Below, in pieces: positions 3,847 through 62,369 of a stretch of DNA of 64,000 nt. The translations under genes were made by a program, and so were the position numbers. The stretch is taken from assembly GCA_965203775.1 (NCBI GenBank), contig OZ241913.1, forward strand, positions 2,832,015 through 2,896,014, given 5' to 3'. This DNA is from Dehalococcoidia bacterium (lineage in GTDB: Bacteria; Chloroflexota; Dehalococcoidia; Bin125). The number at the start of each line of letters is the position of its first letter. Within the stretch, counting starts at the first letter, position 1. A model generated the notes under the pieces. That model worked only from the letters and a program-made list of their open reading frames with translations, searched no databases and had not been told where the DNA came from.

Positions 3847-3934
3847 GCAGGCTCGCGCTCCCCAGTCGCTCACGGCGTGCCGCGTGGGCTGCCCGCAGAG
3901 TAGCGGAGGGCCGTGTTTGGCGCGCGGGCGCTCC

Positions 3935-6900
3935 TTAATCGCGGTCGTTGCGGCGCTGGCTCTTTTCTCCGTCGTCGGTGAAGACGACGCGGGATTTCTT
4001 GCCGCCGTGGATTTGGGGTTCCCGGGCGAGCTTGCGGCGGAGCAGGTCAATGGGGCCGTCGGGCTCGCAGAGGGAGGCGGGCCGGCCGAGGACGTCGACG
4101 AGCAGGCGGCGGTCCAGCTCTGCGCGGGCCGGGCCTTCGTCGATCTGGTCGAACGGGAGGAAGCGGAACTCGCGCATCGCCTCGCACGCCTTGCGGGCGG
4201 CGGCGTGCTGCTCGTCGGTGAGCGCACGGGTGTCGAGCGTGGGAATGTTGGGAATTGAGGTGACGGTCACCGTACCGCGTCCGCTTTGCGACTTGTTCGA
4301 CGACCACCAGTACAAGAGCAGGCCGAGGGTGGAGTTGCACCAGAGCGAGAACGCGTACTCGTCGTCGCGGCGGGCGAAGACGACGGACGGCCAGGCGCGT
4401 CCGCCGATGCATGGACGGTCCGTCATCGCCACGACGAGCGAGTTGGCGTTGAACTGTAGGTCGCGGTTGACATGCGCGCGTGTGGCCGTCGCCCAGACCT
4501 GCTCCGCTTTCTGGTCGACTTCGGATTGCCGCTGCGGGAACGCCTTGACCTGCCCTTCTGAATCGCTCCCCACAGTGAGCGTCCGTTGCGCAGGGGAGTT
4601 GTGCGACCAGAGCATCGGGTAGGTTGGCACGGCGTTGTACGCCGGCTGCACAAGCTGAAACGGTCCGCGCGGCGAGCCGTCTTTCTGATCGCCGCGGATA
4701 TCCAGGTCGTAAGGTCCTCGCCCTGCAATTTCCCCGATCGGAACAATCGGCAGGGTCATGGATTCCGCAGCCGGCTCGGCCGGCAAGCGCAACAGCCCCT
4801 CCTCCAGAGCGCTCGCAGCGACGGCGAGGTCGAAATCACGGATTCCGGCGATCGGCCATGGTCCTCGTTCGGGCAACCTCGCGGCGATCATCTGGCCAAT
4901 GGCGTCGCCGCCGACGGCAAGCATCGGCTCTTGGATCGCCGCGGCATCGTCGACGGGCGCGGCGCGATCGTCAGCGACGGCGCGCGCGCGATCAATCGCC
5001 CGACCGACCTCAGAAGCCCACGCTTCACTGCGCGGGCGGTTTCGGAGCGCTACGAATGTCCCGCGCGGACGATCGGTCTCCGGCTTTCCCTTTCGCGCGA
5101 TCAGCAGACATTCCGCGATTCCGGTATCCGCAGAGAAGGATCGATCGCCAGATCCGGCGGCGGCGATGGTTACGACGACGATGTCGTGGCACAGGTCGGC
5201 GATAGCGCTCCGCGCTTTCTGCCATGCGCTGCCGCTCAACGCGCTGAGCGGCAGCACCATAGCAAGCGCGCCGTTCTCGCGGAGTTTGCGGAGCGCGAGG
5301 TCTGTGAAGTGGGAAGCCAGGCCGGCGTTGCCGTTGCCCAACCGTTGCTCGCCTGCGACGGCGAGCAGCCGGGCTTGCATGAGGTCGCGCACGTCGGGGG
5401 GCGTGTCGAACGCCGCAAAAGCGGGGTTCGCTACGCCGCGCAGCTCCGCTTCCTGGCCGCCTTGCCGAGTGAACGGCGGGTTCATAATCACGACATCGAA
5501 ACGGCCGTGTCCGATCCGCGACATGAGGTCGGTCACGTCTTCCGGGGCGTACCCACCGGACGTGACCGCGGTTGCGCGACGCAGCAGCCCGGCCTGAATG
5601 CCGTCGGCGAACAGGTCGAGCGAGCCGATGGCCACTCGCTCGCCGTCGAGCTCGTCGCTGAGCGCGCCGTAAGGCATCGTGAGCAAGCTGTCGCCGTTGA
5701 ACGGCGTCTCGGGGTGCGTGCTGGCGAGCATGGATGCGGTCAGGTGGACGGCGATGTTCAGGACATCGACGCCGACCAGGCCGGTCTGCATCATCGCGCC
5801 GTGCAACGCGGCAGGATCGCCTCCGTGCAGCTCGTGGAGTATTGACGTTCGTTGGTAGGCAGCGGCGAGCAGCGTGCCGGTTCCGCAGGCGAAGTCGGCG
5901 ATCTGCACTTCGCGCAGAGAATCCAGGTCGCCCCACTCAGCGCCGCGCGGGGCTCCCCGCGGCGGCAGGGCGAGGCTGGCGAGCAACACCGCCGCCTCCG
6001 GCCGGGTGTAGAATGTCGCCAGGAACTCGCGATCGGCGATCAGGCGCTGAAAAATCACTCCCGTGAGGTCGTGCGAGCGGGTCACGCCGCCCTGTACCAG
6101 CTCCGTCGCCGCATCCCAGAGCGGACCGAGCACCTGTCCGGCTGTCGCGGCGGGCAAGCGCCGCAGAATCGCCCTGGCGGCTGCGAAGATCGGCCAGTAG
6201 TTGACGTTCAGAATGCGCTGCCATTCATCGCTCAGCTCACCCAGGTGGAAGCGGTCGGCGTCCGCACGGAAATCGGAGAGCGGCGCGACGCCGCGCGATG
6301 CGCCGTCCGCGCCGCGCAGTGATTGGACGACCTGGAACGATGAGTCGGAGAGCGCGGCGTGAAAGATCAAGGCGTTGATCAGCACCGTCATCGCCATCCG
6401 TCTGGTCTGTCCCGCCTCGTCGTCCGTCTGGCCGAGCAGTGCGGCGATCTCGGCTCCGACCAACCCGGGCGACCGCGATGGCAGACGCAGCATGAAGCGA
6501 TTCGCTGCCGTTCTGATGCCCTGCTCGAGAATCTCGCTCAGACGTTGCACGTGTTGAGCCGGGACTGAGGCGCGATGAATGAGCATCGCCAGGTCGCGCG
6601 CTGAACCGCGCAGCCAGCCCGAACTCGGAAGCCGCTCAACTGTCCCGCCCGCCGCATCCGTGTAGAGCGCGTATTCGAGCGCGTCGCTGGCTGCCAGGGC
6701 GGCGCGGATTTGGGGGCCGCCGGTCTGCTCGCGCGCATCGGGCGGGTAGACGAGCGCCACGGCGCTCTCGATTGGGCGGCCGGTCTGGTGGACAATTTCG
6801 CCGAGGCGGGCGAGCGCGTCGGTTTCCGCAGCGGCGTGGTTCTCGCGCTCGGCTTCGATCACGACCGGCCAGCCGGCGGGTTCCTCGATCAGGATGTCGG

Positions 6901-7021
6901 GCCGGGCGGTCGTGTTGCGCAGGGTGCGCTGGTGCTCGGCGAGCACACGCCAGCTGGTCGGGCGGAGCTCCTGGAGGACCTCGCCGAGCTGGACATTGGT
7001 GGTGTCTTCGCGGGCCCGCAT
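3935..7021 (-). CDS. large gamma-class N6-adenine DNA methyltransferase-domain protein (~1028 aa), type IIG/IIL-like restriction-modification protein with N- and C-terminal extensions
   Basis: Motif X-like [27 protein letters not shown], motif [11 protein letters not shown], motif [10 protein letters not shown], then a post-catalytic [21 protein letters not shown] helix and a ~450-aa C-terminal TRD-like region. N-terminal segment [19 protein letters not shown] may be a degenerate PD-(D/E)XK. Start set at MRAREDTT (cat 7019-7021). The 1598-aa tracker ORF runs antisense through gatB and its first ~570 aa are spurious. Confidence 0.7.
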
Positions 7022-7108
7022 GGGGGACAGTGTAGCGGGTTTGGGGCGGTGCGGGAACGGACGTTCGGAGTCGCTGCTCAGATGCGCGCGAGTCGTAGAC
7101 TGTTCGGC
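7022..7108. promoter_or_regulatory. divergent intergenic region between the MTase-domain gene and gatB (probable divergent promoters)
   Basis: An 87-bp gap between divergently oriented starts. No motif was identified with confidence. Confidence 0.25.
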
Positions 7109-8620
7109 ATGACCACAGACACCGCAACCACCGCCGCCGCTGACTGGGAAACCGTGATTGGGCTTGAGGTCCACGCCCAGCTGCGCACTGAGAGCAAGAT
7201 GTTCTGCCGCTGCCCGGCCGACTACGCCGCGGCCGCGCCCAACACCTACGTCTGCCCGCTCTGCCTGGGCATGCCCGGCACTTTGCCCGTGATCAACCGC
7301 ACCGCCGTCGAGTGGACGATCCGCACCGCGCTCGCGCTCAACATGCGCATCCCCGAACTCTCCAAGTTCGACCGCAAAAACTACCCCTACCCCGACCTGA
7401 TGAAGGGCTACCAGATTTCGCAATACGACATGCCGCTCTCCGAGGGCGGCTGGATGGATGTCGAGACCGACGACCTGGGCCGCCAACGGATCGGCATCAC
7501 GCGCGTCCACCTCGAGGAGGACACCGCGCGGCTGCTGCACCGCGAGAGCGAGGCCGGCGAGCGCTTCTCGCTGGTCGACGTCAACCGCTCCGGCACGCCG
7601 CTGATGGAAATCGTCTCCGAGCCCGACATGCGCTCGCCCCAGCAGGCGCGCCAGTATCTGGTGCAGCTGCGCCAGATGCTGCGCTACCTGGGCGTCTCGA
7701 CCGCGGATATGGAGAAGGGCTCGTTCCGCTGTGACGCCAACGTCTCGCTGCGACGCCCCGGCGCGGCGGAGTTGGGCGCAAAGGTCGAGATCAAGAACAT
7801 GAACTCGTTCCGCAGCGTGCAGCGCGCGCTGGAGTTCGAGCAGTCGCGCCAGGCCGCCGCGCTCGAGGCGGGCGAGCTGATCGCGCAGGAGACGCGCGGC
7901 TGGGACGAAGAGGCGCAGATCACCGTCTCGCAGCGCTCCAAGGAGGAGGCGCACGACTACCGCTACTTCCCCGAGCCGGACCTGCCGCCGCTGCAGACCA
8001 GCCGCGCGACGGTCGAGGCGATTCGCGCCGCGCTGCCCGAGCTGCCCGCCGCCCGCCGCGCCCGCTTCGAGGCCGACTACGGGCTGCAACCGTTCGAGGC
8101 GGGGCTGCTCACCGAAGAGCCCGCGCCCTCGGAGTGGTTTGAAGCGTCGGTCGCCTCCTTGGGTGGCAAACAGGGGGACGGGAGCGCGGACGGGCTGCCG
8201 CGCATGATCGCGACCTGGTTCGTCGGCGAGCTGACCCGGCTGATGCACGAGGCCAAGCCGCCCGACACGCTGGACACGATCCGCGTGCAGCCCGCGCAGC
8301 TGGCCGGGCTGGTGCGGCTGATCGACGACGGAAGCATCAGCAACACCCAGGCCAAGGAGGTTTTCGCCGAGATGTACGCCTCGGGCGAGGACGCGGCTGC
8401 CGTCGTCGAGCGGCTCGGCGTCGCGCAGATTTCGGGCGAGGACGCGCTCGCGCCGATCATCCGCCAGGTGCTCGAGGAGCAGCCGCAGGCCGCGGCCGAC
8501 TACCGCGGCGGCAAGCCGGAGGCGCTGAAGTTTCTGGTCGGCCAGACAATGCGGCTGAGCCGCGGCCAGGCCAACCCCGCGCAGGCCTCCGAACTGCTCC
8601 GCGCCGCGCTCGAGGAGTAG
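7109..8620 (+). CDS. gatB: Asp-tRNA(Asn)/Glu-tRNA(Gln) amidotransferase subunit B
   Basis: MTTDTA...[13 protein letters not shown]...FCRCP...[15 protein letters not shown]...[11 protein letters not shown]... is a full-length GatB signature and includes the C-terminal YqeY-like tail. TAG stop at 8618-8620. Confidence 0.9.
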
Positions 8621-8627
8621 AGCGAGT

Positions 8628-11537
8628 ATGGCCGCGCAGCCGACCCAGACGACGATGACGATCGAGCCGTCGATGAGCGTCGACGAGTTCGTTGCCAAGT
8701 GGCGCAACGCGGCGCCGCGCGAGCGGGCCAACTCGCAAACTCACTTCAACGATCTCTGCGCCGTGCTCGACGTCGCCACGCCCGTCGAGGAAGACCCCAG
8801 CGGCGAGAGCTACACATTCGAGAAGCACGTCGATCTGCCCGGCGGCGGCAGCGGCGACGCCGATGTCTGGAAGCGCGGGCACTTCGGCTGGGAGTACAAG
8901 TCGGGCGGCAAGAGCCTCAGCGTCGCCTACGAGCAACTGCTGGGCTACCGCGAGGGGCTGGAGAACCCGCCGCTGCTCGTGGTCTGCGACATGAACCGCT
9001 TTGAAATCCATACCAACTTCACCAACACCGAGCCGCGCGTGATCGAGTTCACGCTCAAGCACCTGGAAGAAAATCCCACCCACTACATTCGGCTGCTGCG
9101 CGAGGTGTTTCTCGATCCCGAAGCGCTGCACCCGAATCGCGACCCGCGCTATATCACCGAAACCGCCGCAGCAAAGTTCGGCGAGGTGGCCGAGGCGCTG
9201 CGCGAGCGCGACGGGCACGACCCGGCGCTTGTCGCCCGCTTCCTCAACCGAATCATCTTCTGCTTCTTCGCCGAAAGCGTCGGCCTGTACCGCAATCTGC
9301 GCGGGGCAATCGAGAAGCCGGTCACCGATGTGTTCGACAACATGTCGGCCGACGCGACGCTGTCCAAACGGATCGTGGGGCAACTCTTCGAGGCGATGGC
9401 GGAACGCGACGTGCGCAACTTCGGCGCCTACTACATCCGCTGGTTCAACGGCGGCCTGTTCGACGAAACGGCGGTGCCCGAGACGTTGCAGCTGACGGGC
9501 GATCTGGCGCAGATCATCAACGAGACGGCGGAGTTGAACTGGTCGCGGGTGGATCCGGCGATCTTCGGGACGCTGTTCGAGCGCGGGCTGGATCCCAAGC
9601 GCCGCTCGCAGCTGGGCGCGCACTACACCGATCCGGACAACATCATGCGCGTGGTCGAGCCGGTCGCGCTGCGCCCCCTGCGCCGCGAATTCGACGCGCT
9701 GCGCGCCGAACTCGCGCCCGAACACAGGCTCGAAGACGCGCCGCCGCCCGGTTACGGCGAGAACAGCGCGCTGGCTTTCGAAGCGCCCGACCCCGACTCC
9801 CCCGCCGGGCGCATCCACGCCTTCCACCAACGCCTCGCGGCGGTGCGCGTGCTCGACCCCGCCTGCGGCTCCGGCAACTTCCTCTACATCGCAATGCGCG
9901 AGCTGAAAAACCTCGAACAGGAACTGATCGAGTGGGCGCAGCGCCTGGGCGTCAACGGCTTGCAGCGCCGCATCGGCCCCCAAAACATGCTCGGCATCGA
10001 TATCGACCCGTTCGCCGCCGACCTCACCCGTATGTCGCTCTGGATCGGCTACATCCAGTGGAACATCGAGCGAAACATCGACACCACCCGCGACCCCGTC
10101 CTCGGCCGCGCCGAGCAAATCGAATGCCGCGACGCCATCCTCGCCGAGGATGAGGAGGGCAACCCCATCCCCGCAGAGTGGCCCGAAGCGGAGTTCGTCG
10201 TGGGGAATCCGCCGTTTCTGGGCGGAAACCGATTACGCCGCGAGAGCGGCAATGCGTACGTTGACCGTCTTCAATCTGCCTACGCCAACGCCGTAGGCGG
10301 ACAAGCCGACCTTTGCGTCTATTGGCACGAGAGCGCTCGACGACAGATCGAGCAGCGCGCCACCCGCGCTGCTGGCCTCCTTGCCACGAACAGCATAGGC
10401 CAACCGTACAACCGCAAGGTCCTCGAGAACATCGCATCATCGGGAGGCATGTTCTTCGCGTGGCGTGATGAGCAGTGGTTCGACGACGGTACTGCCGTCC
10501 GCATTGCCATCGTCGGCCAAGACGACGGCAGCGAATCGGAACTCGAGCTCGACGGATCGCCAGTCGCCAAGATCAACCTCGATCTGACCGCAGGCGTCCC
10601 GGTTGCGTCAGCTGTGGAACTGGCTGAAAATTCCTCTATCGCGTTTCGGGGTGTTGGGCCTGCTGGACCATTTGACATCTCCTGGACCATTGCCGGGCGC
10701 ATGCTGGCGCGTCCCGTCAACGTGAATGGACGCCCGAATTCCGATGTGGTGATCCCGTTCGTCAACGCTCAAGACCTGGCGCAGACACGGCGGGGACAGC
10801 ACGTCATCGACTTCGGTCAGAGTACATCTATCGAAGACGCGGCTGACTATGAGGAGCCGTTCGAGTACGTGAGGCGACACGTTCTGCCGCGCCGCAAGCG
10901 CAGCAGGAACGACCAACTGCGCAACCAATGGTGGCTCCACGAGGCTTGGCGTCCCGGGATGCGCAAGGCGATCCAGCCGCTCAGTCGCTTCATTGCCACG
11001 CCAGTGACTTCCAAGCACCGCTTCTACGTGTGGCTGGATGCTGGCACACTGCCTGCCAGCTCAGTCAACGTCATAGCTCGTGACGACGACTACATATTCG
11101 GGGTTCTGCACTCGCGAATCCACCACGTTTGGGCTCTTGCGCAGGCAACACGCCTCGGTGTCGGGCCAGCAGACTCCCGCTACATCCACACTCGGTGCTT
11201 CAACACATTTCCGTTCCCTTGGCCACTGACGGCGTCCAACGATGATCTTACGGCCACTCAGCGACGGCAGCACAAAGCGATCTCCGCCGCGGCTGCATCG
11301 TTGGACGCAGCACGCACCCAATGGCTTAACCCCAGTGATGCGCCAGCGGAGCTCGTGCAAGAGCGCACGATGACCGACCTCTACAACGACACCGAAAAAG
11401 ATCCTCGCCCAAAGTGGCTGACCAACAGGCACCAGGCGATCGACAAAGCAGTGGCAGCCGCCTACGGCTGGCCCGCCGACCTGCCGGATGATGAAATCCT
11501 GTCCCGCCTGCTAGCCCTGAATCTGGAGCGCGCCTGA
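8628..11537 (+). CDS. MmeI-family type IIL restriction-modification enzyme (fused PD-ExK nuclease + gamma N6-adenine MTase + TRD), 969 aa
   Basis: Colinear with MmeI: nuclease D..EYK (HVDLPGG...FGWEYKSGGK vs MmeI VDLFW...LIEMKSRG); helical region (RIIFCFFAESVG); motif X (PAIFGTLFERGLDPKRRSQLGAHYTDPDNI vs PAIFGSLFQSIMDAKKRRNLGAHYTSEANI); motif I (VLDPACGSGNFL); motif IV (VVGNPPFLGG); C-terminal TRD. The start lies 8 bp after the gatB stop. Confidence 0.85.
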   Translation: MAAQPTQTTMTIEPSMSVDEFVAKWRNAAPRERANSQTHFNDLCAVLDVATPVEEDPSGESYTFEKHVDLPGGGSGDADVWKRGHFGWEYKSGGKSLSVAYEQLLGYREGLENPPLLVVCDMNRFEIHTNFTNTEPRVIEFTLKHLEENPTHYIRLLREVFLDPEALHPNRDPRYITETAAAKFGEVAEALRERDGHDPALVARFLNRIIFCFFAESVGLYRNLRGAIEKPVTDVFDNMSADATLSKRIVGQLFEAMAERDVRNFGAYYIRWFNGGLFDETAVPETLQLTGDLAQIINETAELNWSRVDPAIFGTLFERGLDPKRRSQLGAHYTDPDNIMRVVEPVALRPLRREFDALRAELAPEHRLEDAPPPGYGENSALAFEAPDPDSPAGRIHAFHQRLAAVRVLDPACGSGNFLYIAMRELKNLEQELIEWAQRLGVNGLQRRIGPQNMLGIDIDPFAADLTRMSLWIGYIQWNIERNIDTTRDPVLGRAEQIECRDAILAEDEEGNPIPAEWPEAEFVVGNPPFLGGNRLRRESGNAYVDRLQSAYANAVGGQADLCVYWHESARRQIEQRATRAAGLLATNSIGQPYNRKVLENIASSGGMFFAWRDEQWFDDGTAVRIAIVGQDDGSESELELDGSPVAKINLDLTAGVPVASAVELAENSSIAFRGVGPAGPFDISWTIAGRMLARPVNVNGRPNSDVVIPFVNAQDLAQTRRGQHVIDFGQSTSIEDAADYEEPFEYVRRHVLPRRKRSRNDQLRNQWWLHEAWRPGMRKAIQPLSRFIATPVTSKHRFYVWLDAGTLPASSVNVIARDDDYIFGVLHSRIHHVWALAQATRLGVGPADSRYIHTRCFNTFPFPWPLTASNDDLTATQRRQHKAISAAAASLDAARTQWLNPSDAPAELVQERTMTDLYNDTEKDPRPKWLTNRHQAIDKAVAAAYGWPADLPDDEILSRLLALNLERA

Positions 11538-11586
11538 CGATCCAGGACCCATGTGTTCCGCCAGCCACACTGTCTCACTTTGACGA

Positions 11587-12654
11587 TCAGGCAGGCTGCC
11601 GCTGATCTCTAATCGTCCAGCTCTCCACATAGGCGCGGGTGTCCGATTCCAAATGGACGACAAGTTCGCCATTATCGTTGAGGTAGCACCCACCATCCAG
11701 ATCACGGTGTACTCGCCCGCCTACCAGGCTGCCATCGTGGCATTCGCTGGCGGCTTGCAAGACATGTTGCTCGTATCCGGTGAGCCAGCCAGAGTCCTTA
11801 GTTCTGTGGGCCGCAGCAAAGCGGGTCGCGATAGCCCAGCAACCTGGCGTTTCGTAGTTGAAGGGATGGAAGGGCCGTTCGCGAATCTTGCCGAATCCAG
11901 GAGATTCGCCAATCTCGCGTAGGTCGACTGCCCAAGCTGGAACGACATCAGTAGGGTGCTCTAGGCTGGGAAATGAGAGCGAGTAAGAAGAGCGCTTCGC
12001 CGCCACCAAGATGAACATGTCCGGGATACAGTCAAACTGCTCCAAGCGTGCATCGACGGGGTTCGAGTTAACAGCAAGGTCGCGGAACTGACCGTCCGCA
12101 CTAAGCTTGATGGGGTTGAAGCGGTGGGTCTTGCGAAGCCTCCCGTGCCCACAAAAGAGCGCAAGCTCTTCTTGAGTACGGTTCCAAAACAGGTACTCTG
12201 CTGGTTCCGTGGCCCAGTCAAGCAAGTTCTCGTCGAGATTCATGTCGTCGTCGTCGTCCTTTGACATGAATACGTGCGGCCTATTCGGAGACCGATCCAG
12301 ACGTGGCTCGCTGTGGCGATTGTCACCGAGTACCACTCGATAGTCCGTCGCCAGATGCGTTTCCGGCGCAGGGCTAGAATGGCGATACTCGTTCACTGCC
12401 CGAACGGTCACCACAACCTCAGCAGGATCAACATCCGGTACTCGTACGACTACCGCGTGGTAGGTGTATCCCCAATGCACACGCTCGTTCGGAACGTCAC
12501 ACCAGTCGTCCTGTACTCCGTTGACGCGAAGGCGGATGCTGTACCCGAGTAAGCGACCGCCGACTGGCTTGTTCCAGAACACGAGCTGGTGCTTTCCATC
12601 AATCGCGCGAGCGCGCAGATTGCGGATAACCGGGCGAACCTTCGTGATATCCAC
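11587..12654 (-). CDS. hypothetical protein, FN3-like N-terminal segment plus unknown ~250-aa domain, low-GC gene
   Basis: A 355-aa ORF convergent with the type IIL gene. GC is ~52-55% against ~70% background. The peptide is non-repetitive and contains an acidic DDDDD linker. Confidence 0.55.
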   Translation of the reverse strand: MDITKVRPVIRNLRARAIDGKHQLVFWNKPVGGRLLGYSIRLRVNGVQDDWCDVPNERVHWGYTYHAVVVRVPDVDPAEVVVTVRAVNEYRHSSPAPETHLATDYRVVLGDNRHSEPRLDRSPNRPHVFMSKDDDDDMNLDENLLDWATEPAEYLFWNRTQEELALFCGHGRLRKTHRFNPIKLSADGQFRDLAVNSNPVDARLEQFDCIPDMFILVAAKRSSYSLSFPSLEHPTDVVPAWAVDLREIGESPGFGKIRERPFHPFNYETPGCWAIATRFAAAHRTKDSGWLTGYEQHVLQAASECHDGSLVGGRVHRDLDGGCYLNDNGELVVHLESDTRAYVESWTIRDQRQPA

Positions 12655-12990
12655 CTATCCGCCCTTTTCGGTTGAAGACTCAGAGTCGAGGCAGGCGGGT
12701 GTCGTATCGGCTACCGACGCGCGCAGCCCCGGCATCATCTCCTCCGGCGTCTTCCCCGTCAGGTCGAAATACACCCGGTCGGGGCAGATATCGAGCTCGT
12801 CGCTCCAGCCGATCGCGCGAAACGGTGTGATGTGAACCCGCTCGAAGAACGCTCGGTCCTCCCAGACTTTGAAGACGCCCCGGCCCGCCACATCGCTCAG
12901 GTCGACCTCGCCGGAAGCGCCGTCGTCGTACTCGACGTAGATGCGGTAGCCCTCGCGCGGCTCGACCTTGAGCAGTTTCGGCATCGCCAT
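12655..12990 (-). CDS. DUF2442 domain protein
   Basis: VEPREGYRIYVEYDDGASGEVDLSD...GVFKVWED...FERVHI...AIGWSDELDICPD is the DUF2442 consensus. ATG at 12990. Confidence 0.75.
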   Translation of the reverse strand: MAMPKLLKVEPREGYRIYVEYDDGASGEVDLSDVAGRGVFKVWEDRAFFERVHITPFRAIGWSDELDICPDRVYFDLTGKTPEEMMPGLRASVADTTPACLDSESSTEKGG

Positions 12991-13031
12991 AGTGTCCCCA
13001 GTCTAGCGCGCCGCTGCCAAAGCGGCAGAGT

Positions 13032-13334
13032 TCAGGCATCGACAGGCTGCGCGCGCAGCCCCGGCATCATCTCCTCGGGCGTCTTGCCGGTCAGCCGGAA
13101 GTAGACGGCGTCCGGGCAGATATCGAGCTCGTTGCCCCACCCAATCGCACCGTCCTCCGTGATGTGGACTCGCTCGAAGACGCCCGGTTCATCCCAGACT
13201 TTGAAGACGCCTTTGCCGGCGTTGTGGCTCAGGTCGACCTCGCCGCAGGCGCCGTCGTCGTATTCGACGTAGATGCGGTAGCCCTCGCGGGGCTCCACGC
13301 GGATTGGTTCGGGCATCGGAGCGTCTATGTCCAT
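13032..13334 (-). CDS. DUF2442 domain protein (tandem paralog)
   Basis: ~80% identical to the 12655..12990 protein at both peptide and DNA level. An alternative start at 13316 gives MPEPIRVEP. Confidence 0.75.
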   Translation of the reverse strand: MDIDAPMPEPIRVEPREGYRIYVEYDDGACGEVDLSHNAGKGVFKVWDEPGVFERVHITEDGAIGWGNELDICPDAVYFRLTGKTPEEMMPGLRAQPVDA

Positions 13335-13354
13335 GGTGCTGCCAGTGTAGCGCG

Positions 13355-14380
13355 TCAGCTGCGGGAGCGGCCGGTGGCGCGGGCGACGTGAATCACCTGC
13401 GGGGTGTTCTGGAACGTTTCGACGCCGACCTCGGCGAAGATTTGGTTGACGCCGTTGCGGATCTCGTCGGTCAGCTTCCAGTCGGTCGCGGCGACGTTTT
13501 CCTCGAGTTCCTGCTCGTTGCGCATGCCGACCAGGGCGCAGCTGACGGCGGGGTGGTCGAGCACCCAGGCGATGGCGAGTTGGGCGACGGTTTTGCCGTA
13601 GCCGTCGGCGAGTTCGGCGAGTCGGTTGGCGACTTCGACCTCTTTGACGAACTGCTCGCGCTCGAACAGCGGCAGTTCAAAGGCCATCCCGGAGCGGCTG
13701 CGCCAGTCGCCCTCGTCGAACGTGGTGTCGGGCGTGAACGCGCCGGTCAACAGCCCGAAGGCGAGCGAGCCGTAGGCCATGTAGCCGATGCCGTTGGCCT
13801 GGCACCAGGGCAGCACGCGCGATTCCATGCGCCGGTCGAACATGTGGTAGCCGACCTGGTTGGCGGCGATGTGCCCGTACTGCTCGCACTCCTGCATCAT
13901 GTCGATGTTGAAGTTGGAGACGCCGTAGTGGCGGATTTTGCCGTCCTGCTTGAGCTGCTCGAGCGCGCCGATCGACTCTTCGAAGGGCGTGTCGTGATCG
14001 GGCCAGTGGATCAGCATCAGGTCGATCACGTCGGTCTTGAGCCGGCGCAGGCAGCCTTCGGTGCGCTCGATGATGTAGTCGCGGGTCGCGTTGAGCCCGG
14101 CCACCGCGCCGCCCTCGTCGTATTGGAAGCCGACTTTGGTGACGAGCACGATTTCGTTGCGGCGCGAGCCGAGCGCGTCGGCGAGCAGCTCTTCGGAGTG
14201 GAAGGGGCCGTAGATCTCGGCGGTGTCGAAGAGGGTGATGCCGCGGTCGATGGCGGCGTTGACCGCGCGGGCGGCCTCGCCGACGTCGATGTGGCCGTAC
14301 ATCGTGGTGCTCATCTCCCAGGTGCCGAAGCCGACCGCTGAGGCCGTGAGGTCGGTGTCGCCGAATTGCCGCTGCTCCAT
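13355..14380 (-). CDS. aldo/keto reductase
   Basis: MEQRQFGDTDLTASAVGFGTWEM..., GITLFDTAEIYG, LIHWPD, HYGVSNF are AKR family signatures. Start set at MEQRQ (the tracker ORF extends 18 codons upstream). Confidence 0.85.
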   Translation of the reverse strand: MEQRQFGDTDLTASAVGFGTWEMSTTMYGHIDVGEAARAVNAAIDRGITLFDTAEIYGPFHSEELLADALGSRRNEIVLVTKVGFQYDEGGAVAGLNATRDYIIERTEGCLRRLKTDVIDLMLIHWPDHDTPFEESIGALEQLKQDGKIRHYGVSNFNIDMMQECEQYGHIAANQVGYHMFDRRMESRVLPWCQANGIGYMAYGSLAFGLLTGAFTPDTTFDEGDWRSRSGMAFELPLFEREQFVKEVEVANRLAELADGYGKTVAQLAIAWVLDHPAVSCALVGMRNEQELEENVAATDWKLTDEIRNGVNQIFAEVGVETFQNTPQVIHVARATGRSRS

Positions 14381-14532
14381 CGTGTCCCTCGCAAATCCAG
14401 ACTGCGTGCCGCCCGCGCGCCGTTCGCCGGGCAAGTACGCCAGTCTAGCCGCTCGGCCGAGCTTGCGTGAGGCTTGAGCTCGCTCGCCGCGGGCGCTACC
14501 GTGTTGTGTGGCGGGCGCATATAGTGTCGCAG

Positions 14533-38529: not shown

Positions 38530-39545
38530 TGGGCAGCGTATCACCGCCTGGGGGGCTGTTCGTCGCTTCTGCGCCCCTCTCCGTCATTCCTGCGCAGGCA
38601 GGAATGACGGGCGCCTTCCCCAATTCATCCCTCCCCCCTTTTAGGGGGGAGGTTAGGTGGGGGGTGGGAGGCTGCGAGCGAGCGCCGACCGCCCGTTCGC
38701 GCCGCGCGCTCAAAATCGTCATTCCTGCGCAGGCAGGAACCGCGCGACCCCACCGTCGTACCCCTCCCCCCACCGTCATTCCTGCGCCCTCTTTCCGTCA
38801 TTCCTGCGCAGGCAGGAACGCGCGGTGGGCGCGGCCTCGTCCTGCGATGGGCGTTCGGCGGGCCGCCGCGGGATGTGCGGCGCATACGGGCGCTAGCGGC
38901 CGCCCCCCATTCCTGCCTGCGCAGGAATGACGGAAAATGGCGCAGGAGTGACGGAGAGAGGGGGTAGGAGTGACGGGGAGAGAGGGGGTAGGAGTGACGG
39001 AAGAAGCAGGAGTGACGGGGAGAGAGGGGGTAGGAGTGACGGAATTGTGAAGCCCTTTGGGGGTTGGGGGAGTGGACACGATCGGTGCGCCCGCTCGGTA
39101 CGTCCCACCCCCCACCTAACCTCCCCCCTAAAAGGGGGGAGGGATGAATTGGGGAATTCAACCGTCATTCCTGCGTAGGCAGGAAGCCAGGTGTGTGCGC
39201 GCGCGGGTTCCTGCCTGCGCAGGAATGACGGAATTGCGAAGCCCTTGGGGGTCGGGGGAGTGGACACGATCGGTGCGCCCGCTCGGTACGTCCCACCCCC
39301 CACCTAGCCTCCCCCCTAAAAGCAGACCTTCGCGTAACCCCCAAATTCGGCGATGCAGGCCGATCGCCTCTATCTGGTCGGGTTGTCCACCACACAGCGA
39401 AATTCGGGGTTGCGCGAAAGTCTGCTAAAAGGGGGGAGGGATGAATTGGGGAAGTCGCCCGTCATTCCTGCGGAGGCAGGAAGCAGGGGTGTGAGTGCGC
39501 AGGTTCCTGCCTGCGCAGGAATGACGGAATAGGCGCGTGGATGCC
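38530..39545. repeat. intergenic repeat island (includes MITE-1 copy c at 38795..38933 and element X2 at 39322..39425)
   Basis: Family-B hairpins at ~38630, ~39110, ~39300 (interrupted) and ~39420. Tandem ggtaggagtgacgg units at 38960-39040. Confidence 0.8.
39322..39425. other. ~104-nt structured element X2, inserted in a family-B hairpin loop (candidate ncRNA or novel MITE)
   Basis: Closing stem gcagaccttcgcg/cgcgaaagtctgc (13 bp, different sequence from X1 but still complementary). Shares the core ccaaattcggcg...gccgatcgcctctatctggtcgg with X1. Flanked by ctaaaag duplicated. Confidence 0.5.
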
Positions 39546-39558
39546 GATGGTTGCGTGC

Positions 39559-39855
39559 TTAGCTGGCGTCTTGGACGCGCTTGCCGGAGTCTACCAGGTT
39601 GGCGAAGCGGGTGCGGCTGAGGGGGTCGTTGCGGGCGGCTTTTTCCCAGGCGGCGTCTACCATCTTGGCGTACTTGGGGTGCATCTCGCGCATTTTGGTC
39701 TTTTCGTCCTTGATGAAGGCGCTGCTCGCGATCAGGCGCTCGACCTGGGCGGTCTCGCCGCAGGACTCGCAGGGCGGGGCGTCGGCCCCGATTTTGCGCT
39801 GGAACTTCTCGAACTCCACGCCGCAGGCGCGGCAGGCGTATTCGTAGATCGGCAT
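39559..39855 (-). CDS. FmdB-family zinc-ribbon putative regulatory protein
   Basis: MPIYEYACRACGVEFEKFQ...PPCESCGE...: the YEYxCxxCG...CxxCG FmdB signature. Confidence 0.7.
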   Translation of the reverse strand: MPIYEYACRACGVEFEKFQRKIGADAPPCESCGETAQVERLIASSAFIKDEKTKMREMHPKYAKMVDAAWEKAARNDPLSRTRFANLVDSGKRVQDAS

Positions 39856-39954
39856 CGTCGGCCTCCATCCGCCACGCGCGCGTCGGGCATGCGCCGCGCG
39901 GCTGCTGCGATGGTACGCTCATTGGCGTTCCCGCGTGAACAGAGAGGTGCTGCG

Positions 39955-40860
39955 ATGGGCGGCTACGGGGTGCGGACGGTCTTCCTGATGGTGCTGATGG
40001 CGGGTCTGCTGATGGTGATCGGCTACGCCTTCGGCGGCACGACCTGGCTGATCATCTTCGGGGTGATCGCGATCGCGATGAACTTCTTCTCCTATTGGAA
40101 GTCGGATTCGATCATCCGCACGGCGATGGGGGCGCAGGAGGTGACGGCGCAGCAGCAGCCGATGCTGCACCGGATCGTGGAGCGCGCGGCGGTCGACGCC
40201 GAGTTGCCCAAGCCGAAGATCTACGTGGTCGACACGCCGGTGCCCAACGCTTTCGCGACGGGTCGCAGCCCGAAGCACGCGGCGGTGGCGGCCACGACGG
40301 GGATCATGAGCATCCTGACCGAGCGAGAGTTGGCCGGGGTGATGGCGCACGAGATGGCGCACGTGAAGAACCGCGACACGCTCTGGAGCACGATGGTGGC
40401 GATGATGGCCTCGGTCATCATGCTGGTCGCAATGCTGGCCAAGTGGTCGCTGATGCTGGCCTTTCTGTTCGGCGGGATGGGCGGCAACAACGAGCAGGGC
40501 GGCGGCGTGGGTCATCTGGCGGCGATGCTGGTGCTGGCGTTCGTCGCGCCGGTGATCGCGGGGATGATTCAGATGGCGGTGAGCCGTCAGCGGGAGTACG
40601 GGGCGGACGAGGCGGGGGCGCGCAACTCGCGCGATCCGCACGCGCTGGCGAGCGCGCTGACCAAGCTGCAGGCGGCCAGCCAGTCGCCGCAGGCGCGCCA
40701 CGCGGCGGAGGAGATGGCGACGGCGGAGGTGGCGAATCATCTGTTCATCGTCAATCCGCTGGCGGGCGGCGCGGGCAAGTGGTTCAGCAGTCACCCGCCG
40801 ACGAAGGATCGCGTGGAGCGGCTGCGCCAGTTGGGCCGCGAAATCGGGCAGATTTTCTAG
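39955..40860 (+). CDS. htpX: zinc metalloprotease HtpX (M48 family)
   Basis: HEMAHVKNRD (HExxH), two N-terminal TM helices, C-terminal ...FSSHPPTKDRVERL. RBS agagagg upstream of the ATG at 39955. Confidence 0.85.
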   Translation: MGGYGVRTVFLMVLMAGLLMVIGYAFGGTTWLIIFGVIAIAMNFFSYWKSDSIIRTAMGAQEVTAQQQPMLHRIVERAAVDAELPKPKIYVVDTPVPNAFATGRSPKHAAVAATTGIMSILTERELAGVMAHEMAHVKNRDTLWSTMVAMMASVIMLVAMLAKWSLMLAFLFGGMGGNNEQGGGVGHLAAMLVLAFVAPVIAGMIQMAVSRQREYGADEAGARNSRDPHALASALTKLQAASQSPQARHAAEEMATAEVANHLFIVNPLAGGAGKWFSSHPPTKDRVERLRQLGREIGQIF

Positions 40861-40875
40861 CGGGGCGACGCGGTC

Positions 40876-41559
40876 GTGCGCGCGCTGCCGCTGGCGGTTC
40901 TGATTCTGGGCGGGATCGTCGCGATCGGCGGCGGCGAGCGTATCGCCATCTTTCGCGCTTCAACGTTATTGCCCAACGCTGCTGTGCTCGGCGATGGGCG
41001 GATCGTACTCAACGACGGGCTGCTGCAAACGCTCAACGAAGCGGAGCTTGAGGCGGTGCTGCGGCATCTGCAAGAGCGGTCCGACGGGCGCAGCGGCGCG
41101 GCTGTCGCGGTGTTACTGTTACCGATCGTGTTCGCGGCTGCGCTGCTCAAATCTCTGCTAACAATTTTTGCCGCCTTCGCGCAATCCGAAGTGGAAGGCG
41201 GCTCCGTCGGCGAAGCGCAAAGCATCGGTCCGGTGAGCGCTGGCGTTATCGTCGGTCCGTTTGCGCGGCTCCTGCTCTGGTTCGGCGCGAGCCGTGGCTC
41301 AGTCTGGACGGCTGACGACGCTACAGCGCCACTCGCGCTACAGCGCGAGGCGCTGATCCGCGTGCTTGAGAAAGCCGACCGCGTATCGCGGCCGCCAATC
41401 GTGTTCCGAACCGCTCGGTACAGTCTGATCTCGTTGTTCTGGAATCACCTCTTCTTCTCCAGCCCACTCGATTACACCCCGCTCCAACGCTTCGCCCACC
41501 TCCCTACCAGTCGCGCCCGGCTTGCGCGGCTCGGCGATCCGCACAATCGCGCATCCTGA
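40876..41559 (+). CDS. hypothetical membrane protein (possibly degenerate M48-like; lacks HExxH)
   Basis: GTG start, N-terminal TM, lower GC (~60%). The weak similarity to protease-like segments is not convincing. Confidence 0.4.
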   Translation: MRALPLAVLILGGIVAIGGGERIAIFRASTLLPNAAVLGDGRIVLNDGLLQTLNEAELEAVLRHLQERSDGRSGAAVAVLLLPIVFAAALLKSLLTIFAAFAQSEVEGGSVGEAQSIGPVSAGVIVGPFARLLLWFGASRGSVWTADDATAPLALQREALIRVLEKADRVSRPPIVFRTARYSLISLFWNHLFFSSPLDYTPLQRFAHLPTSRARLARLGDPHNRAS

Positions 41560-53131: not shown

Positions 53132-53962
53132 ATGCCCGATACCGACGCGCTGTTCGAGCTGGCCTTCGGCTACGACCGCGACCTGCCGCTTGAGGTTGAG
53201 CGGCGCACGGTGCGCGAGGCGGACTCGCTCAAGCTTGAGCGGTTCGAGCTGAGCTCGCGCAACGAGCAGCGCGTGCCCGGCCTGCTGCTCTCCGACCCTA
53301 CCGTCGCGGGCCCGCGCCCGCTGGTGCTGGTGGGGCATCCCGGCACGCTCGACAAGGCGGCCGACTACGTGCTCTGGCCGGCGCAGCAGTGGGTCGCGCG
53401 GGGCGCGATCTGCGCCACGATCGATCAGGCCGGCCACGGCGAGCGGGCGCAGCGCCCGGTGACGATGGACGACTTCCGCAACTGGCCGATGCGCCGCCTC
53501 GACCAGTCGCTGCAAACGGCGGTGGATTGGATGCGCGCGCTCGACTGGCTCTCCACGCTGCCCGAGATTGACGCCGAGCGGGTCGGGTTCGTCGGCTTCA
53601 GTATGGGCGGAATGCGCGGGGCGCCGTTCGTCGGTCTGGATCAGCGGGTGCGCGCCGCGGCGTTCTGCATCAGCGGCGCGACCACGTTGGGAGGTTCAGA
53701 CTCGCCGGCCGCGCAGCTCGCGTCGCGGCTGACCGACCCCGGCGTCTACGCGCCGATGACTGAGGGGCGGCCGATCCTGGTGGTCGCCGGCGAGCGCGAT
53801 GATCTGGTCACGCCCGAAGCGACGCAGCGCTTCTACGACCTGCTGCCCGAACCCAGGGAGATCGTCTGGCTGCCCTGCGGGCACTGGGATTTCATGCCGC
53901 AGGGCATTGAGCCGGTCGGCCCGTTCCTGGAGCGCGCGCTCGCCTACGGCGATGCGAGCTAG
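53132..53962 (+). CDS. alpha/beta hydrolase (dienelactone hydrolase / acetyl-xylan-esterase-like)
   Basis: GFVGFSMGG nucleophile elbow, the acid in VVAGERDDLV, the His in LPCGHWDF. Confidence 0.75.
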   Translation: MPDTDALFELAFGYDRDLPLEVERRTVREADSLKLERFELSSRNEQRVPGLLLSDPTVAGPRPLVLVGHPGTLDKAADYVLWPAQQWVARGAICATIDQAGHGERAQRPVTMDDFRNWPMRRLDQSLQTAVDWMRALDWLSTLPEIDAERVGFVGFSMGGMRGAPFVGLDQRVRAAAFCISGATTLGGSDSPAAQLASRLTDPGVYAPMTEGRPILVVAGERDDLVTPEATQRFYDLLPEPREIVWLPCGHWDFMPQGIEPVGPFLERALAYGDAS

Positions 53963-54606
53963 TCGTTCCAGATACGCGCGAGATCGACGGTCAGGCCAAC
54001 CAGCACGTCCTCGCCGCTCAGCGAGTCGGGTTTGTCCAACTCCTCCGGCTCGTCCTGCCCCTCGCGGTAGACCCAGACCTTCTCGCTGTAGGCGTCGACC
54101 AGCCAGCCGAGGCGAGCGCCGTAGGCCATCCACTGCTCCATCTTTTCCTGCTGGCGCGAGACGGAGTCGCTGCGCGAACGGATTTCGACTACGAAGTCGG
54201 GGCAGACCGGGATCAGTACCCCTTCGTAGTCCTGCGGGCGCTGCGCCATTCGCTCGTCGCTGGTCCAGGAGACATCGGGCGCGCGCAGCACGCCGCCGGG
54301 CAGGTGGGCCATGCCCGCCTCTCCGCCGATCCGCCCGCCTCCGCCGGCGCGCCGCCAGTTGCCGACGTCAATCAGAAACTCGGCGGCTCGTTCGCTGTTG
54401 TCCAATCCGGTGCCGGGCATGATCACCAACTCTCCGGCGGCAGTGGTCTCGAACTCCCAGCCTTCGTTGAGCTCGCACAGCTCGAGGAAGCATTCCTCAG
54501 TCAGCCGCCACTCGGGCGGCAGGCGCAGGTGGATGCACTCGAAGCCCCACTCGTTGGGCAGCGGCGCGCTGAGATCGGGTTTCGCCTCTGCTTCGGCAGT
54601 GACCAT
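53959..54606 (-). CDS. Uma2-family (DUF820) PD-(D/E)XK endonuclease-like protein, tandem copy 1
   Basis: MVTAEAEAKPDLSAPLPNEWGFE...VLIPVCPDFVVEIRSRSD...WVYREG. The Uma2 family carries the PDFVVEI nuclease motif. Confidence 0.8.
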   Translation of the reverse strand: MVTAEAEAKPDLSAPLPNEWGFECIHLRLPPEWRLTEECFLELCELNEGWEFETTAAGELVIMPGTGLDNSERAAEFLIDVGNWRRAGGGGRIGGEAGMAHLPGGVLRAPDVSWTSDERMAQRPQDYEGVLIPVCPDFVVEIRSRSDSVSRQQEKMEQWMAYGARLGWLVDAYSEKVWVYREGQDEPEELDKPDSLSGEDVLVGLTVDLARIWND

Positions 54607-54661
54607 CTCGCACTCCTCTCGGTCGGCTCAACCAGCATAGAAGCGCAGCGCTGCGCTTCAG

Positions 54662-55309
54662 CTAGTTGTTCCAGATGCGCGCCAGATTGACGACCAGACC
54701 GACCAGCACATCCTCGCCGCTGAGCGAGTCGGGTTTGTCCAGTTCCTCCGGCTCATCCTGCCCCTCGCGGTAGACCCAGACCTTTTCGCTGTAGGCGTCG
54801 ATCAGCCAGCCCAAGCGCGCGCCGTAGGACACCCACTGCTCCATTTTCTCCTGCTGGCGCGAGACGGAGTCGCTGCGCGAGCGGATTTCGACCACGAAGT
54901 CGGGGCAGACCGGGATCAGCACGCCGTCGTAACCTTCCTGACGCTGGCCAATCCGCTCAGGGCTGATCCAGGCAACATCAGGCGACCGCATTATCCCGTC
55001 GGGATGCCGCACCATTCCGTCGCCGGGGTGGTATTCGCCGTCGCCGCCCGAGCGGCTCCAGTTGCCAACGTCGACCAGAATTTCGGCGGCTCGCTTGCTG
55101 TTCTCGCGTCCGGTGCCGGGCATGATCACCAACTCTCCGGCGGCAGTGGTCTCGAACTCCCAGCCCTCGTTGAGCTCGCACAACTCGAGGAAGCACTCTT
55201 CCGTCAGCTGCCACTCCGGCGGCAGCCGCAGGCAGATGTATTCGAAGCCCCACTCGTTGGGCAATGGTGCGCTGAGATCGGGTTTCGCCTCTGCTTCGGC
55301 GGTGACCAT
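54662..55309 (-). CDS. Uma2-family endonuclease-like protein, tandem copy 2
   Basis: ~85% identical to copy 1. Same 215-aa length. Confidence 0.8.
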   Translation of the reverse strand: MVTAEAEAKPDLSAPLPNEWGFEYICLRLPPEWQLTEECFLELCELNEGWEFETTAAGELVIMPGTGRENSKRAAEILVDVGNWSRSGGDGEYHPGDGMVRHPDGIMRSPDVAWISPERIGQRQEGYDGVLIPVCPDFVVEIRSRSDSVSRQQEKMEQWVSYGARLGWLIDAYSEKVWVYREGQDEPEELDKPDSLSGEDVLVGLVVNLARIWNN

Positions 55310-55365
55310 CTTGGCCTCCTCTCGGTCGGCTCAACCAGCATAGAAGCGCCGTGCGGCGGCGCGGG

Positions 55366-56013
55366 TCAGTCGGTCCAGATACGCGCGAGATCGACGACCA
55401 GGTCGACCAGCACATCCTCGCCGCTGAGCGAATCCGGCTTGTCCAACTCCTCCGGCTCGTCCACGCCCTCGCGGTAGACCCAGACCTTCTCGCTGTAAGC
55501 GTCGACCAGCCAGCCCAGGCGAGCGCCGTAGGACATCCACTGCTCCATCTTCTCCTGCTGGCGTGAGACGGAGTCGCTGCGCGAGCGGATTTCGACTACG
55601 AAGTCGGGGCAGACCGGGATCAGTACCCCTTCGTAGTCCTCGGGGCGCTGCGCCATCCGCTCGTCGCTGGTCCAGGAGACATCGGGCGCGCGCAGCACGC
55701 CGCCGGGCAGATGCGCCATACCCGCTTCGCCGCCGATCCGTCCGCTACCGCCGGCGCGCCGCCAAATCACGACATCGGCCCCAATAAGCACCGCGCGCTC
55801 GCTGTTGTCTAATCCGGTGCCGGGCATGATCACCAACTCTCCGGCGGCAGTGGTCTCGAACTCCCAGCCCTCGTTGAGCTCGCACAACTCGAGGAAGCGC
55901 TCTTCCGTCAGCTGCCACTCCGGCGGCAGCCGCAGGCGGATGCACTCAAAGCCCCACTCGTTGGGCAATGGCGCGCTGAGATCGGGTTTTACTTGCGCTT
56001 CGGCAGTGACCAT
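55366..56013 (-). CDS. Uma2-family endonuclease-like protein, tandem copy 3
   Basis: ~88% identical to copy 1. The variable stretch is ERAVLIGADVVIWRRAGG. Confidence 0.8.
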   Translation of the reverse strand: MVTAEAQVKPDLSAPLPNEWGFECIRLRLPPEWQLTEERFLELCELNEGWEFETTAAGELVIMPGTGLDNSERAVLIGADVVIWRRAGGSGRIGGEAGMAHLPGGVLRAPDVSWTSDERMAQRPEDYEGVLIPVCPDFVVEIRSRSDSVSRQQEKMEQWMSYGARLGWLVDAYSEKVWVYREGVDEPEELDKPDSLSGEDVLVDLVVDLARIWTD

Positions 56014-62345: not shown

Positions 62346-62369
62346 GGGGAGTGGGGTGGAGGGCGACCC

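Follow-up and report, generated by a model that had tools for sequence, protein, structure and literature searches.

A 64-kb stretch of a Dehalococcoidia genome (hereafter the window; mean GC 68.5%) carries an intact gene for a restriction-modification (RM) enzyme of the MmeI family (type IIL). This gene is very probably modular, and its segment from ~10225 to ~11432, which encodes the DNA-recognition half of the enzyme, appears to have been swapped by homologous recombination between alleles of the clade at conserved motif-coding anchors, with the adjoining gene slot exchanged separately. The relatives used for comparison are Dehalococcoidia metagenome-assembled genomes (MAGs) of 3.0-3.7 Mb found in a genome scan; their loci are labeled L001 and so on, and their proteins P0001 and so on. 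The parts of the gene, in window coordinates, are listed below, where MTase denotes methyltransferase, TRD target recognition domain and GC3 the GC content of third codon positions.

8628..11537, plus strand: MmeI-family (type IIL) RM gene, intact, 969 aa (Pfam, PADLOC, phmmer to 5HR4).
8628..10224, plus strand: N-terminal backbone, aa 1-532, comprising the nuclease domain, the helical spacer and the MTase N-half up to and including motif IV; GC3 0.89; 98% DNA identity to L001, L006 and L003.
10206..10217, plus strand: NPPF codons, MTase motif IV, aa 527-530, matching MmeI 481-484; within the conserved, putative 5′ recombination anchor EWPEAEFVVGNPPFLGG.
10220..10232, plus strand: predicted 5′ recombination junction (identity drop in the alignment to L001/L006, family breakpoint peak at aa 530-539, GC3 change point).
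10227..11222, plus strand: module M3, predicted to be exchangeable, aa 534-865, with the MTase C-half from the post-NPPF loop, TRD-N and TRD-C; GC3 ~0.70 (identity profile, 13 M3 clusters).
11223..11432, plus strand: module M4, ~aa 866-935, C-terminal helical bundle, predicted to be separately exchangeable (identity step against L003; breakpoint peaks at aa 860-869 and 930-939).
11433..11534, plus strand: conserved 3′ tail, aa 936-969 (HQAIDKAV...LNLERA), putative 3′ recombination anchor that sets the C-modules apart from the cargo slot; 86-90% DNA identity to L001, L006, L003 and L002.

The junction was mapped against L001 and L006, whose flanking proteins are 98-100% identical to those of the window (aldo/keto reductase 99%, GatB 98-99%). 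DNA identity to both is 98% over 8628-10224, 58-62% over 10233-11222 and 54% over 11223-11432, and it recovers to 86-89% over 11433-11534. Sequence flanking this tail is only 54-55% identical to L001 and L006, and in the alignment the last ~35 codons are conserved in all alleles compared. Further downstream, identity to L001 is 55% over 11587-12599 and 98% over 12600-12654. The collapse occurs within ~10 nt, directly after the GNPPFLGG codons; the earliest 12-nt segment with at most 7 matches starts at 10222 against L006 and at 10220 against L001. Judged from these alignments, recombination took place at the break after NPPF, and the DNA-recognition half of the enzyme beyond it has evidently been replaced. 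The replacement itself has relatives, as M3 is 99.3% identical to L003 and 91% to L002 at the DNA level, but M4 of the window is only 86.7% identical to that of L003.

One feature of the backbone deserves mention in its own right. Over ~700 nt upstream of the junction (9450-10170), identity to L001, L006 and L003 is 99-100%, compared with 94-98% for the rest of the backbone and gatB. This stretch may be a recent conversion tract, or it may reflect strong constraint beside the crossover site.

A step in base composition marks the same position. GC content is 0.661 over both 8628-10000 and 8628-10224, falls to 0.612 over 10225-11537 (0.611 over 10250-11537) and to 0.575 over 11587-12654, and returns to 0.647 over 12655-13334; the rest of the window lies at 0.685-0.69. 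The low-GC tract is contiguous from 10225 to 12654 (GC 0.595), and the lowest two of the 64 1-kb bins are 11001-12000 (0.595) and 12001-13000 (0.596). Over 150-codon windows, GC3 lies at 0.84-0.91 as far as ~10250 and at 0.66-0.73 beyond while GC1 and GC2 stay flat, and overall GC3 drops from 0.89 in the N-terminal part to 0.70 in the C-terminal part (Fisher's exact p=5.6e-13). When two segments are fitted by likelihood, the step comes after codon 526 (nt 10205; 2-lnL support interval 10103-10229) with a log-likelihood ratio of 28.2, a value reached by 0 of 2000 permutations (p<5e-4). The drop in identity lies within this independently derived interval or at its margin. Moreover, four of the five lowest GC3 values among 146 coding windows of 130 codons over the 64 kb (mean 0.894, sd 0.069) are located within 10323-11103.

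A preliminary description of this DNA had proposed a compositional break inside the gene just after NPPF, and both the break and its position are borne out by these measurements. The interval that it gave, 10250-12654, equals the divergent tract to ~25-55 nt at either end, and its view of the gene as a mosaic in the TRD region agrees with the fall in identity from 98% to less than 60% right after NPPF and with the shuffled module combinations described below. Its GC estimates were correct in direction and coordinates, although the absolute figures were off by 3-5 points (~0.70 for 0.661, 0.57-0.60 for 0.611 and 0.52-0.55 for 0.575).

The same modules recur in different combinations across the family. 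The N-terminal parts of the window, L001 and L006 proteins are 99-100% identical, whereas their three C-modules are mutually 52-59% identical. Among the 120 best homologues, the M2 backbone of the window (aa 205-533) is paired with 13 M3 clusters (aa 534-865, 85% single-linkage). Conversely, shared C-modules that are 86-97% identical sit on backbones that are just 64-68% identical throughout the family. Examples are P0003 and P0033 (M3 97%, M2 65%), P0019 and P0024 (M3 97%, M2 64%), and P0004 and P0021 (M3 96%, M2 64%). The last pair is 97% identical in M1, which indicates that the middle module also moves. Between L001 and L006, aa identity is 52% in M3 and 97-100% in M4 plus the tail.

A change-point scan of 2415 protein pairs located 315 of 1296 large identity steps at aa 530-539, with lesser peaks at aa 100-109, 190-229, 250-279, 860-869 (the FNTFPFPWP stretch) and 930-939. 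The clustering of breakpoints at conserved motifs is clear in these alignments. Both signs of natural TRD exchange, a sharp drop in identity in the TRD region between closely related genes and the same variable module on different backbones, are therefore present, and the pattern, as read from the protein comparisons, is one of reticulate exchange rather than fast divergence.

Two other explanations for such a pattern were weighed. The C-terminal third could have diverged in place under diversifying selection, with codon usage or mutation acting locally to lower its GC3. Selection for novelty is generally expected on the TRDs of RM enzymes (see also the introduction to PMC4833311), and GC3 of the C-terminal part is equal to or lower than that of the N-terminal part in nearly all alleles examined. 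However, this explanation is very improbable given that DNA identity falls from 98% to less than 60% within ~10 nt, that flanks of 98-100% identity enclose C-modules of 52-59% identity, and that the module combinations form a four-gamete-type pattern, in which one M3 (96-97%) occurs on backbones of 64-65% identity and many M3 versions occur on one backbone. It also sits poorly with the non-syntenic paralogues L008 and L009, whose C-terminal parts keep a GC3 of 0.84-0.86 in equally GC-rich genomes, indicating that low GC3 is not forced by the coding sequence.

Alternatively, the junction might be a chimera, made by a metagenome assembler that merged the reads of two strains living side by side where both share the conserved NPPF stretch. 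The relatives are MAGs from mixed populations, and conserved anchors between polymorphic regions favor assembler chimeras. Such an artefact is nonetheless scarcely credible here, because the same combination of N-terminal part and C-module was assembled independently in L003, with 98-99% identity over the junction, and a 91% version is present in a third sample (L002). In addition, the open reading frame (ORF) is intact across the junction, and analogous mosaics are found in closed long-read MAG chromosomes of 3.3-3.5 Mb.

The closest relatives of the two halves of the protein also bear on where the exchanged segment came from. The best matches to the N-terminal part are P0001 (from L003, which has the same C-module too) and P0003-P0010, at 95-100% identity; P0003-P0010 are only 50-65% identical in the C-terminal part. 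The best C-terminal matches are P0001, P0002, P0007 and P0013. These per-segment identities were taken from full-length homologues, because a search with the C-terminal 436 aa alone returned nearly only truncated proteins with no more than 60% identity and listed neither full-length P0001 nor P0002, though both are 93-99% identical there. The preliminary description held that different best-hit taxa for the two halves would support mosaicism. The neighbors do differ at the level of strains, but those of both halves belong to the class Dehalococcoidia and occupy the same chromosomal locus. For this reason the exchange is, by all sequence indications, allelic and within the clade, and not an import from a distant taxon.

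The divergent tract extends past the RM gene into a convergent gene, here called the cargo gene, and the downstream features are as follows.

11587..12654, minus strand: cargo gene, 355 aa, orphan family; GC 0.575, GC3 0.64 (no Pfam, NCBIfam or PADLOC match).
12600..12654, minus strand: conserved first ~18 codons of the cargo gene, right boundary of the divergent tract against L001 (98.2% DNA identity to L001).
12655..13334, minus strand: two tandem DUF2442 genes, 12655-12990 and 13032-13334; GC3 0.84 (Pfam DUF2442).
13355..14434, minus strand: aldo/keto reductase (AKR), the conserved flank that closes the variable locus (Pfam Aldo_ket_red, 1.9e-75).

Other genomes hold different content in the slot occupied by the cargo gene.

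L001: a 361-aa homologue of the cargo protein, 47% identical.
L002: an unrelated ApeA-like HEPN protein.
L004: an unrelated protein.
L005: unrelated proteins.
L006: nothing.

According to the preliminary description, a specificity module and this cargo gene had recently been imported together. Such a scenario would involve a single recent event that brought in one ~2.4-kb low-GC block, TRD region plus cargo, from a lower-GC donor. The low-GC tract is indeed contiguous, both of its parts diverge from L001 with similarity back only at ~12600, and lower-GC Dehalococcoidia have the same locus, with a C-module GC3 of 0.61-0.70. Four observations make joint import unlikely. The tract is divided by the conserved ~100-nt anchor that encodes the protein tail. 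The two parts are paired discordantly elsewhere: L002 carries the window's C-module (93% aa identity) beside its unrelated ApeA-like HEPN gene, and L086 carries a cargo gene 80% identical to that of the window beside a C-module that is ~50% identical. The window's C-module is just 51-60% identical to those of the low-GC clade. Finally, low GC3 is shared by all C-modules and slot genes in the high-GC relatives. The discordant pairings and the intervening anchor indicate that TRD module and cargo assort independently, and a single co-import in this lineage is not needed to explain the data. Instead, the slot between the conserved MmeI tail and the DUF2442 array is, to judge from its contents, a second cassette site that is exchanged independently. 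We also considered whether the cargo type is tied to the allele of M4 and the tail, as P0025 might suggest (75% identity in aa 871-969, cargo 80%); P0030, which is 76% identical in the same region and accompanied by the other cargo type at 47%, shows that this does not hold as a rule.

The compositional data likewise do not date an event. In the high-GC relatives (L001-L006 and L043), GC3 is 0.68-0.79 in the C-terminal part versus 0.85-0.89 in the N-terminal part, and all slot genes have a GC of 0.55-0.62 and a GC3 of 0.64-0.75. GC3 of the DUF2442 genes and the reductase is 0.84-0.92. Because every C-module and slot gene in the high-GC relatives shares low GC3, this is a property of the whole pool. 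It marks a circulating, exchangeable accessory pool that does not have host composition, and not one datable recent event, so that the recent import envisaged in the preliminary description does not follow from the low-GC patch.

The cargo family is tiny. Among 5.8e9 proteins it has 15 homologues, and an exhaustive profile search of 1.84e9 representatives gave 5 full-length clusters together with a few matches confined to FN3. An AlphaFold2 model of the cargo protein has a mean predicted local distance difference test (pLDDT) score of 50.5, with values below 50 beyond the N-terminal ~100 aa. In Foldseek comparison with the PDB, these ~100 aa match FN3 domains only, weakly (E ~2e-3). From the model, the N-terminal region thus looks FN3-like, and the C-terminal domain looks to be of no assigned fold. 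A defence role for the cargo protein would be a guess prompted by its setting. The cargo family is itself mosaic, as P0126 joins a near-identical window-type N-terminal ~100 aa to the C-terminal domain of the other type. No terminator or promoter consensus was found in the 49-nt convergent gap between the MmeI-family gene and the cargo gene.

We propose that the MmeI-family gene is a long-standing chromosomal resident that sits directly downstream of gatB in this high-GC clade and is built of four modules, namely the nuclease domain, the spacer plus MTase N-half, the MTase C-half plus TRD, and the C-terminal bundle. The modules are set apart by short motif-coding stretches of high conservation, which would serve as recombination anchors, and homologous recombination between alleles of different strains or species of the clade would then swap whole modules. 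By this route, the segment from ~10225 to ~11432 in the window genome would have become a different allele from that in genomes that are otherwise 98% identical. The C-modules and slot genes would be drawn from an accessory pool that has not ameliorated to host composition.

Homologous recombination between alleles would be the simplest mechanism for such exchange, and other sources for the segment were sought. The 64-kb window contains no second copy of any part of 10225-12654, no silent cassettes, no tRNA gene and no second copy of the MmeI-family or cargo gene. The longest inverted repeats around the locus (8000-14500) span 37 nt with 73% complementarity, no more than expected by chance, and no meaningful direct repeats flank the patch. 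No recombinase was seen at the locus in the window by Pfam search or in L001-L006. Intragenomic switching of the shufflon or phase-variable kind was set aside as a candidate, as neither silent TRD cassettes nor inverted repeats nor a recombinase are present near the gene in the window. Phage and plasmid collections held nothing closer than 42% aa identity, the best phage match being 26% and the best plasmid match 39-42%.

Several observations weigh against the account of allelic exchange given here. The nearest other C-modules (L004 and L005, ~79% aa identity) also reside in high-GC genomes, so low GC3 is not traced to a low-GC lineage, and no donor lineage was identified among the relatives. 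There is little or no GC3 drop in the family members L008, L009, L014, L016 and L019, and a large drop occurs outside this locus in L022 and L025; for this reason composition marks exchange imperfectly. Two or more MmeI-family copies are present in several of the related genomes, which makes intragenomic paralogue donors beyond the visible 64 kb possible. The pairwise breakpoint counts are not independent, in that one ancestral exchange recurs in many pairs. Lastly, the predicted change of recognition sequence relies on residues that differ where the alignment to MmeI has low identity.

The protein itself has the five-part single-chain layout of the MmeI family, in which an N-terminal nuclease, a helical spacer, a gamma-class N6-adenine MTase, a TRD and a C-terminal helical region follow one another. 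Enzymes of this family act without a cognate MTase of their own kind encoded separately, cleave ~20/18 nt away from an asymmetric site and methylate only one strand. Pfam matches on the 969-aa ORF are MmeI_N (2e-13, aa 16-193), MmeI_hel (5.7e-10, 202-278), MmeI_Mtase (5.9e-32, 395-632) and MmeI_TRD (1.5e-09, 767-864). All four exceed their gathering scores, in keeping with the type IIL identity assigned in the preliminary description. PADLOC adds a match to its type IIG profile REase_MTase_IIG at 9.5e-252, and phmmer aligns the protein to the MmeI structure sequence 5HR4 (E=5.9e-51) in three stretches spanning aa 76-953. MmeI_C (PF20467) is not matched by the ORF; the tail nonetheless aligns to MmeI 830-885. 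The PD-(D/E)XK catalytic residues of MmeI are D70, E80 and K82 (PMC4833311), to which D79, E89 and K91 correspond in the phmmer alignment. Motif I (consensus xDPACGxGxFL; LDPACGSGNFL, aligned to FDPACGCGNFL of MmeI) and the NPPF of motif IV (aa 527-530) are intact, and the ORF is unbroken across the junction at 10225. With its domains and catalytic motifs preserved, the gene looks functional from its predicted product.

The position of the junction is informative with regard to specificity. It corresponds to MmeI residues 485-489 in the alignment. In the structure of MmeI bound to DNA, the MTase-domain residues K487, S488 and K489 contact minor-groove bases, TRD residues 621-825 read the major groove, and loop 805-810 reads positions 4-6 (PMC4833311). 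The post-NPPF residues at the positions of K487-K489 differ between the alleles of the window (GNR), L001 (GKL) and L006 (SNQ), and so does the stretch aligned to loop 805-810, with GVGPADSRY, ADG-PSRRY and GKG-NDLRY in the same order. On this alignment, the exchanged unit carries all known sequence-reading elements, which are the post-NPPF MTase loop and both TRD subdomains. In MmeI, cleavage and methylation both depend on a single TRD, so that a swap alters the two at once (PMC4833311). For this reason, we infer that the swap most likely changes the recognition sequence for restriction and modification together, with no lethal intermediate.

The genomic setting of the gene is conserved. Its upstream neighbor is as follows.

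7100..8620, plus strand: gatB, Asp/Glu-tRNA amidotransferase subunit B (Pfam GatB_N, GatB_Yqey; NCBIfam GatB equivalogs).

The start of gatB is approximate; the listed ORF (6710-8620) is over-extended, and 492-516 aa are called in relatives. The start codon of the MmeI-family gene lies 7 nt past the gatB stop in the window (8620-8628), L001 (9993-10001), L002, L003 and L006. This spacing suggests that the two genes are probably co-transcribed, and an essential translation gene would be an unusual operon partner for a restriction enzyme. In 21 loci, gatB is directly upstream of the MmeI homologue, with GatB identity ranging from 99% down to 69%, and AKR follows on the downstream side in 17 further syntenic loci (77-99% aa identity). 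The recurring order in relatives is gatB, the MmeI homologue, variable content, aldo/keto reductase, a cofD-like gene and secG; a YvcK/CofD-like gene (Pfam/NCBIfam) is likewise among the neighbors in the window. That the linkage to gatB recurs over such a range of identity indicates that the MmeI-family gene is an old resident of a fixed site and no sporadic island.

On the other side of gatB, a gene for a 1028-aa protein (3935-7021, minus strand) has weak Pfam matches to Eco57I (1.8e-05) and N6_Mtase (1.1e-04) and PADLOC matches to mad2 and MTase_II. The ~3.2-kb segment that contains it (3869-7112) is present in L002, L003 and L005 and absent from L001, L004 and L006; a variable RM-type gene thus lies on each side of gatB. 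The MmeI-family gene has no MTase gene next to it in the operon, and the N6-MTase-like gene across gatB is not an obligate partner, because the three genomes that lack the segment still keep the MmeI homologue.

The DUF2442 genes beyond the cargo slot are also variable. The pair in the window forms a 269-nt direct repeat with 80% DNA identity. In L001-L006, arrays of 1-8 DUF2442 genes are interleaved with DUF4160 (for example, L001 14022-16200 and L006 13365-15722), and DUF2442 copy number varies between genomes with near-identical flanks. The DUF2442/DUF4160 arrays give a weak NCBIfam match to the type II antitoxin DhiA.

A few other regions of the window are mentioned for completeness. Three tandem paralogous genes at 53959-56013 (minus strand) encode 215-aa proteins of the Uma2 family (PF05685, putative restriction endonuclease; E 4e-29 to 3e-27). 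Two further ORFs of 215-216 aa with no Pfam match are located at 60816-61463 and 62152-62802 (minus strand). Coding windows at ~60204-61418 have a GC3 of 0.68-0.72, making this the only other stretch as low as the MmeI C-module. Two adjacent M48-peptidase-like genes at 39541-41559 (plus strand) show reduced GC (0.637-0.677 per kb) and a GC3 of 0.72-0.76.

A broader proposal, to which we would give an even chance, is that the gatB-linked MmeI gene is a deeply conserved core locus of a Dehalococcoidia lineage and operates as a four-module combinatorial system that recombines at fixed motif-coded junctions. Dozens of recognition modules would be maintained, presumably by phage-driven frequency-dependent selection, and the post-NPPF boundary would define a natural minimal type IIL specificity cassette that includes the MTase minor-groove loop.

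With at least 13 recognition modules on one backbone, the locus is among the cleanest natural datasets on specificity change in single-chain RM enzymes. The natural crossover, mapped to within ~10 nt of the catalytic NPPF, suggests a cut site for the construction of chimeric MmeI-type enzymes, and its position implies that the TRD is transferred together with the MTase loop that follows motif IV. The locus also presents an RM gene that is kept at a housekeeping-linked site across deep divergence while the recognition half alone turns over. For genome annotation, it offers a case in which a compositional anomaly is explained without invoking a mobile element.

Natural TRD exchange in MmeI-family type IIL enzymes was proposed by Morgan and Luyten in 2009, who cited the homologues IPF4888 and IPF5080 of Microcystis aeruginosa PCC7806, which are 98.5% identical except in the TRD region, where identity is 55% (PMC2731914). 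The values reported here for the same enzyme family are much alike, with 98% (DNA) and 99-100% (aa) identity outside the exchanged segment and 52-59% (aa) inside it. The Microcystis genes are two paralogues in one genome, whereas those described here are orthologous alleles at one gatB...AKR site in 18-21 genomes, with many alleles on one backbone and a junction mapped within ~10 nt of motif IV. Moreover, unlike in the Microcystis case, the exchanged unit exceeds the TRD by including the MTase C-half, the C-terminal bundle is a further module, and the nuclease domain and MTase N-half appear to recombine too.

Related processes have been described for other RM systems. A study of Helicobacter pylori (Furuta et al. 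2014, PMC3983042) describes a 'domain movement' of TRDs between methyltransferase alleles or genes via conserved flanks, which diversifies the methylomes of strains. The TRD sequences described here would likewise move through conserved flanking sequence, although the organism differs and the enzyme types may differ too. Recombination of hsdS modules in type I systems (as cited in PMC2731914) is similar in that conserved regions around variable TRDs act as anchors and near-identical genomes carry different TRD combinations. Type I systems, however, have a separate S subunit with two TRDs, often arranged in inverted-repeat shufflons with a recombinase, whereas the enzyme described here is a single polypeptide with one TRD, and its window has neither silent cassettes nor inverted repeats. 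The cargo slot resembles the variable slots of defence islands in holding unrelated genes in each genome, among them the ApeA-like HEPN gene of L002, with DUF2442/DUF4160 arrays adjoining, but the window's own slot gene matches no PADLOC, Pfam or NCBIfam defence family. TRD exchange by recombination is thus already established, and the advance provided by this locus is one of detail and scale, not of kind.

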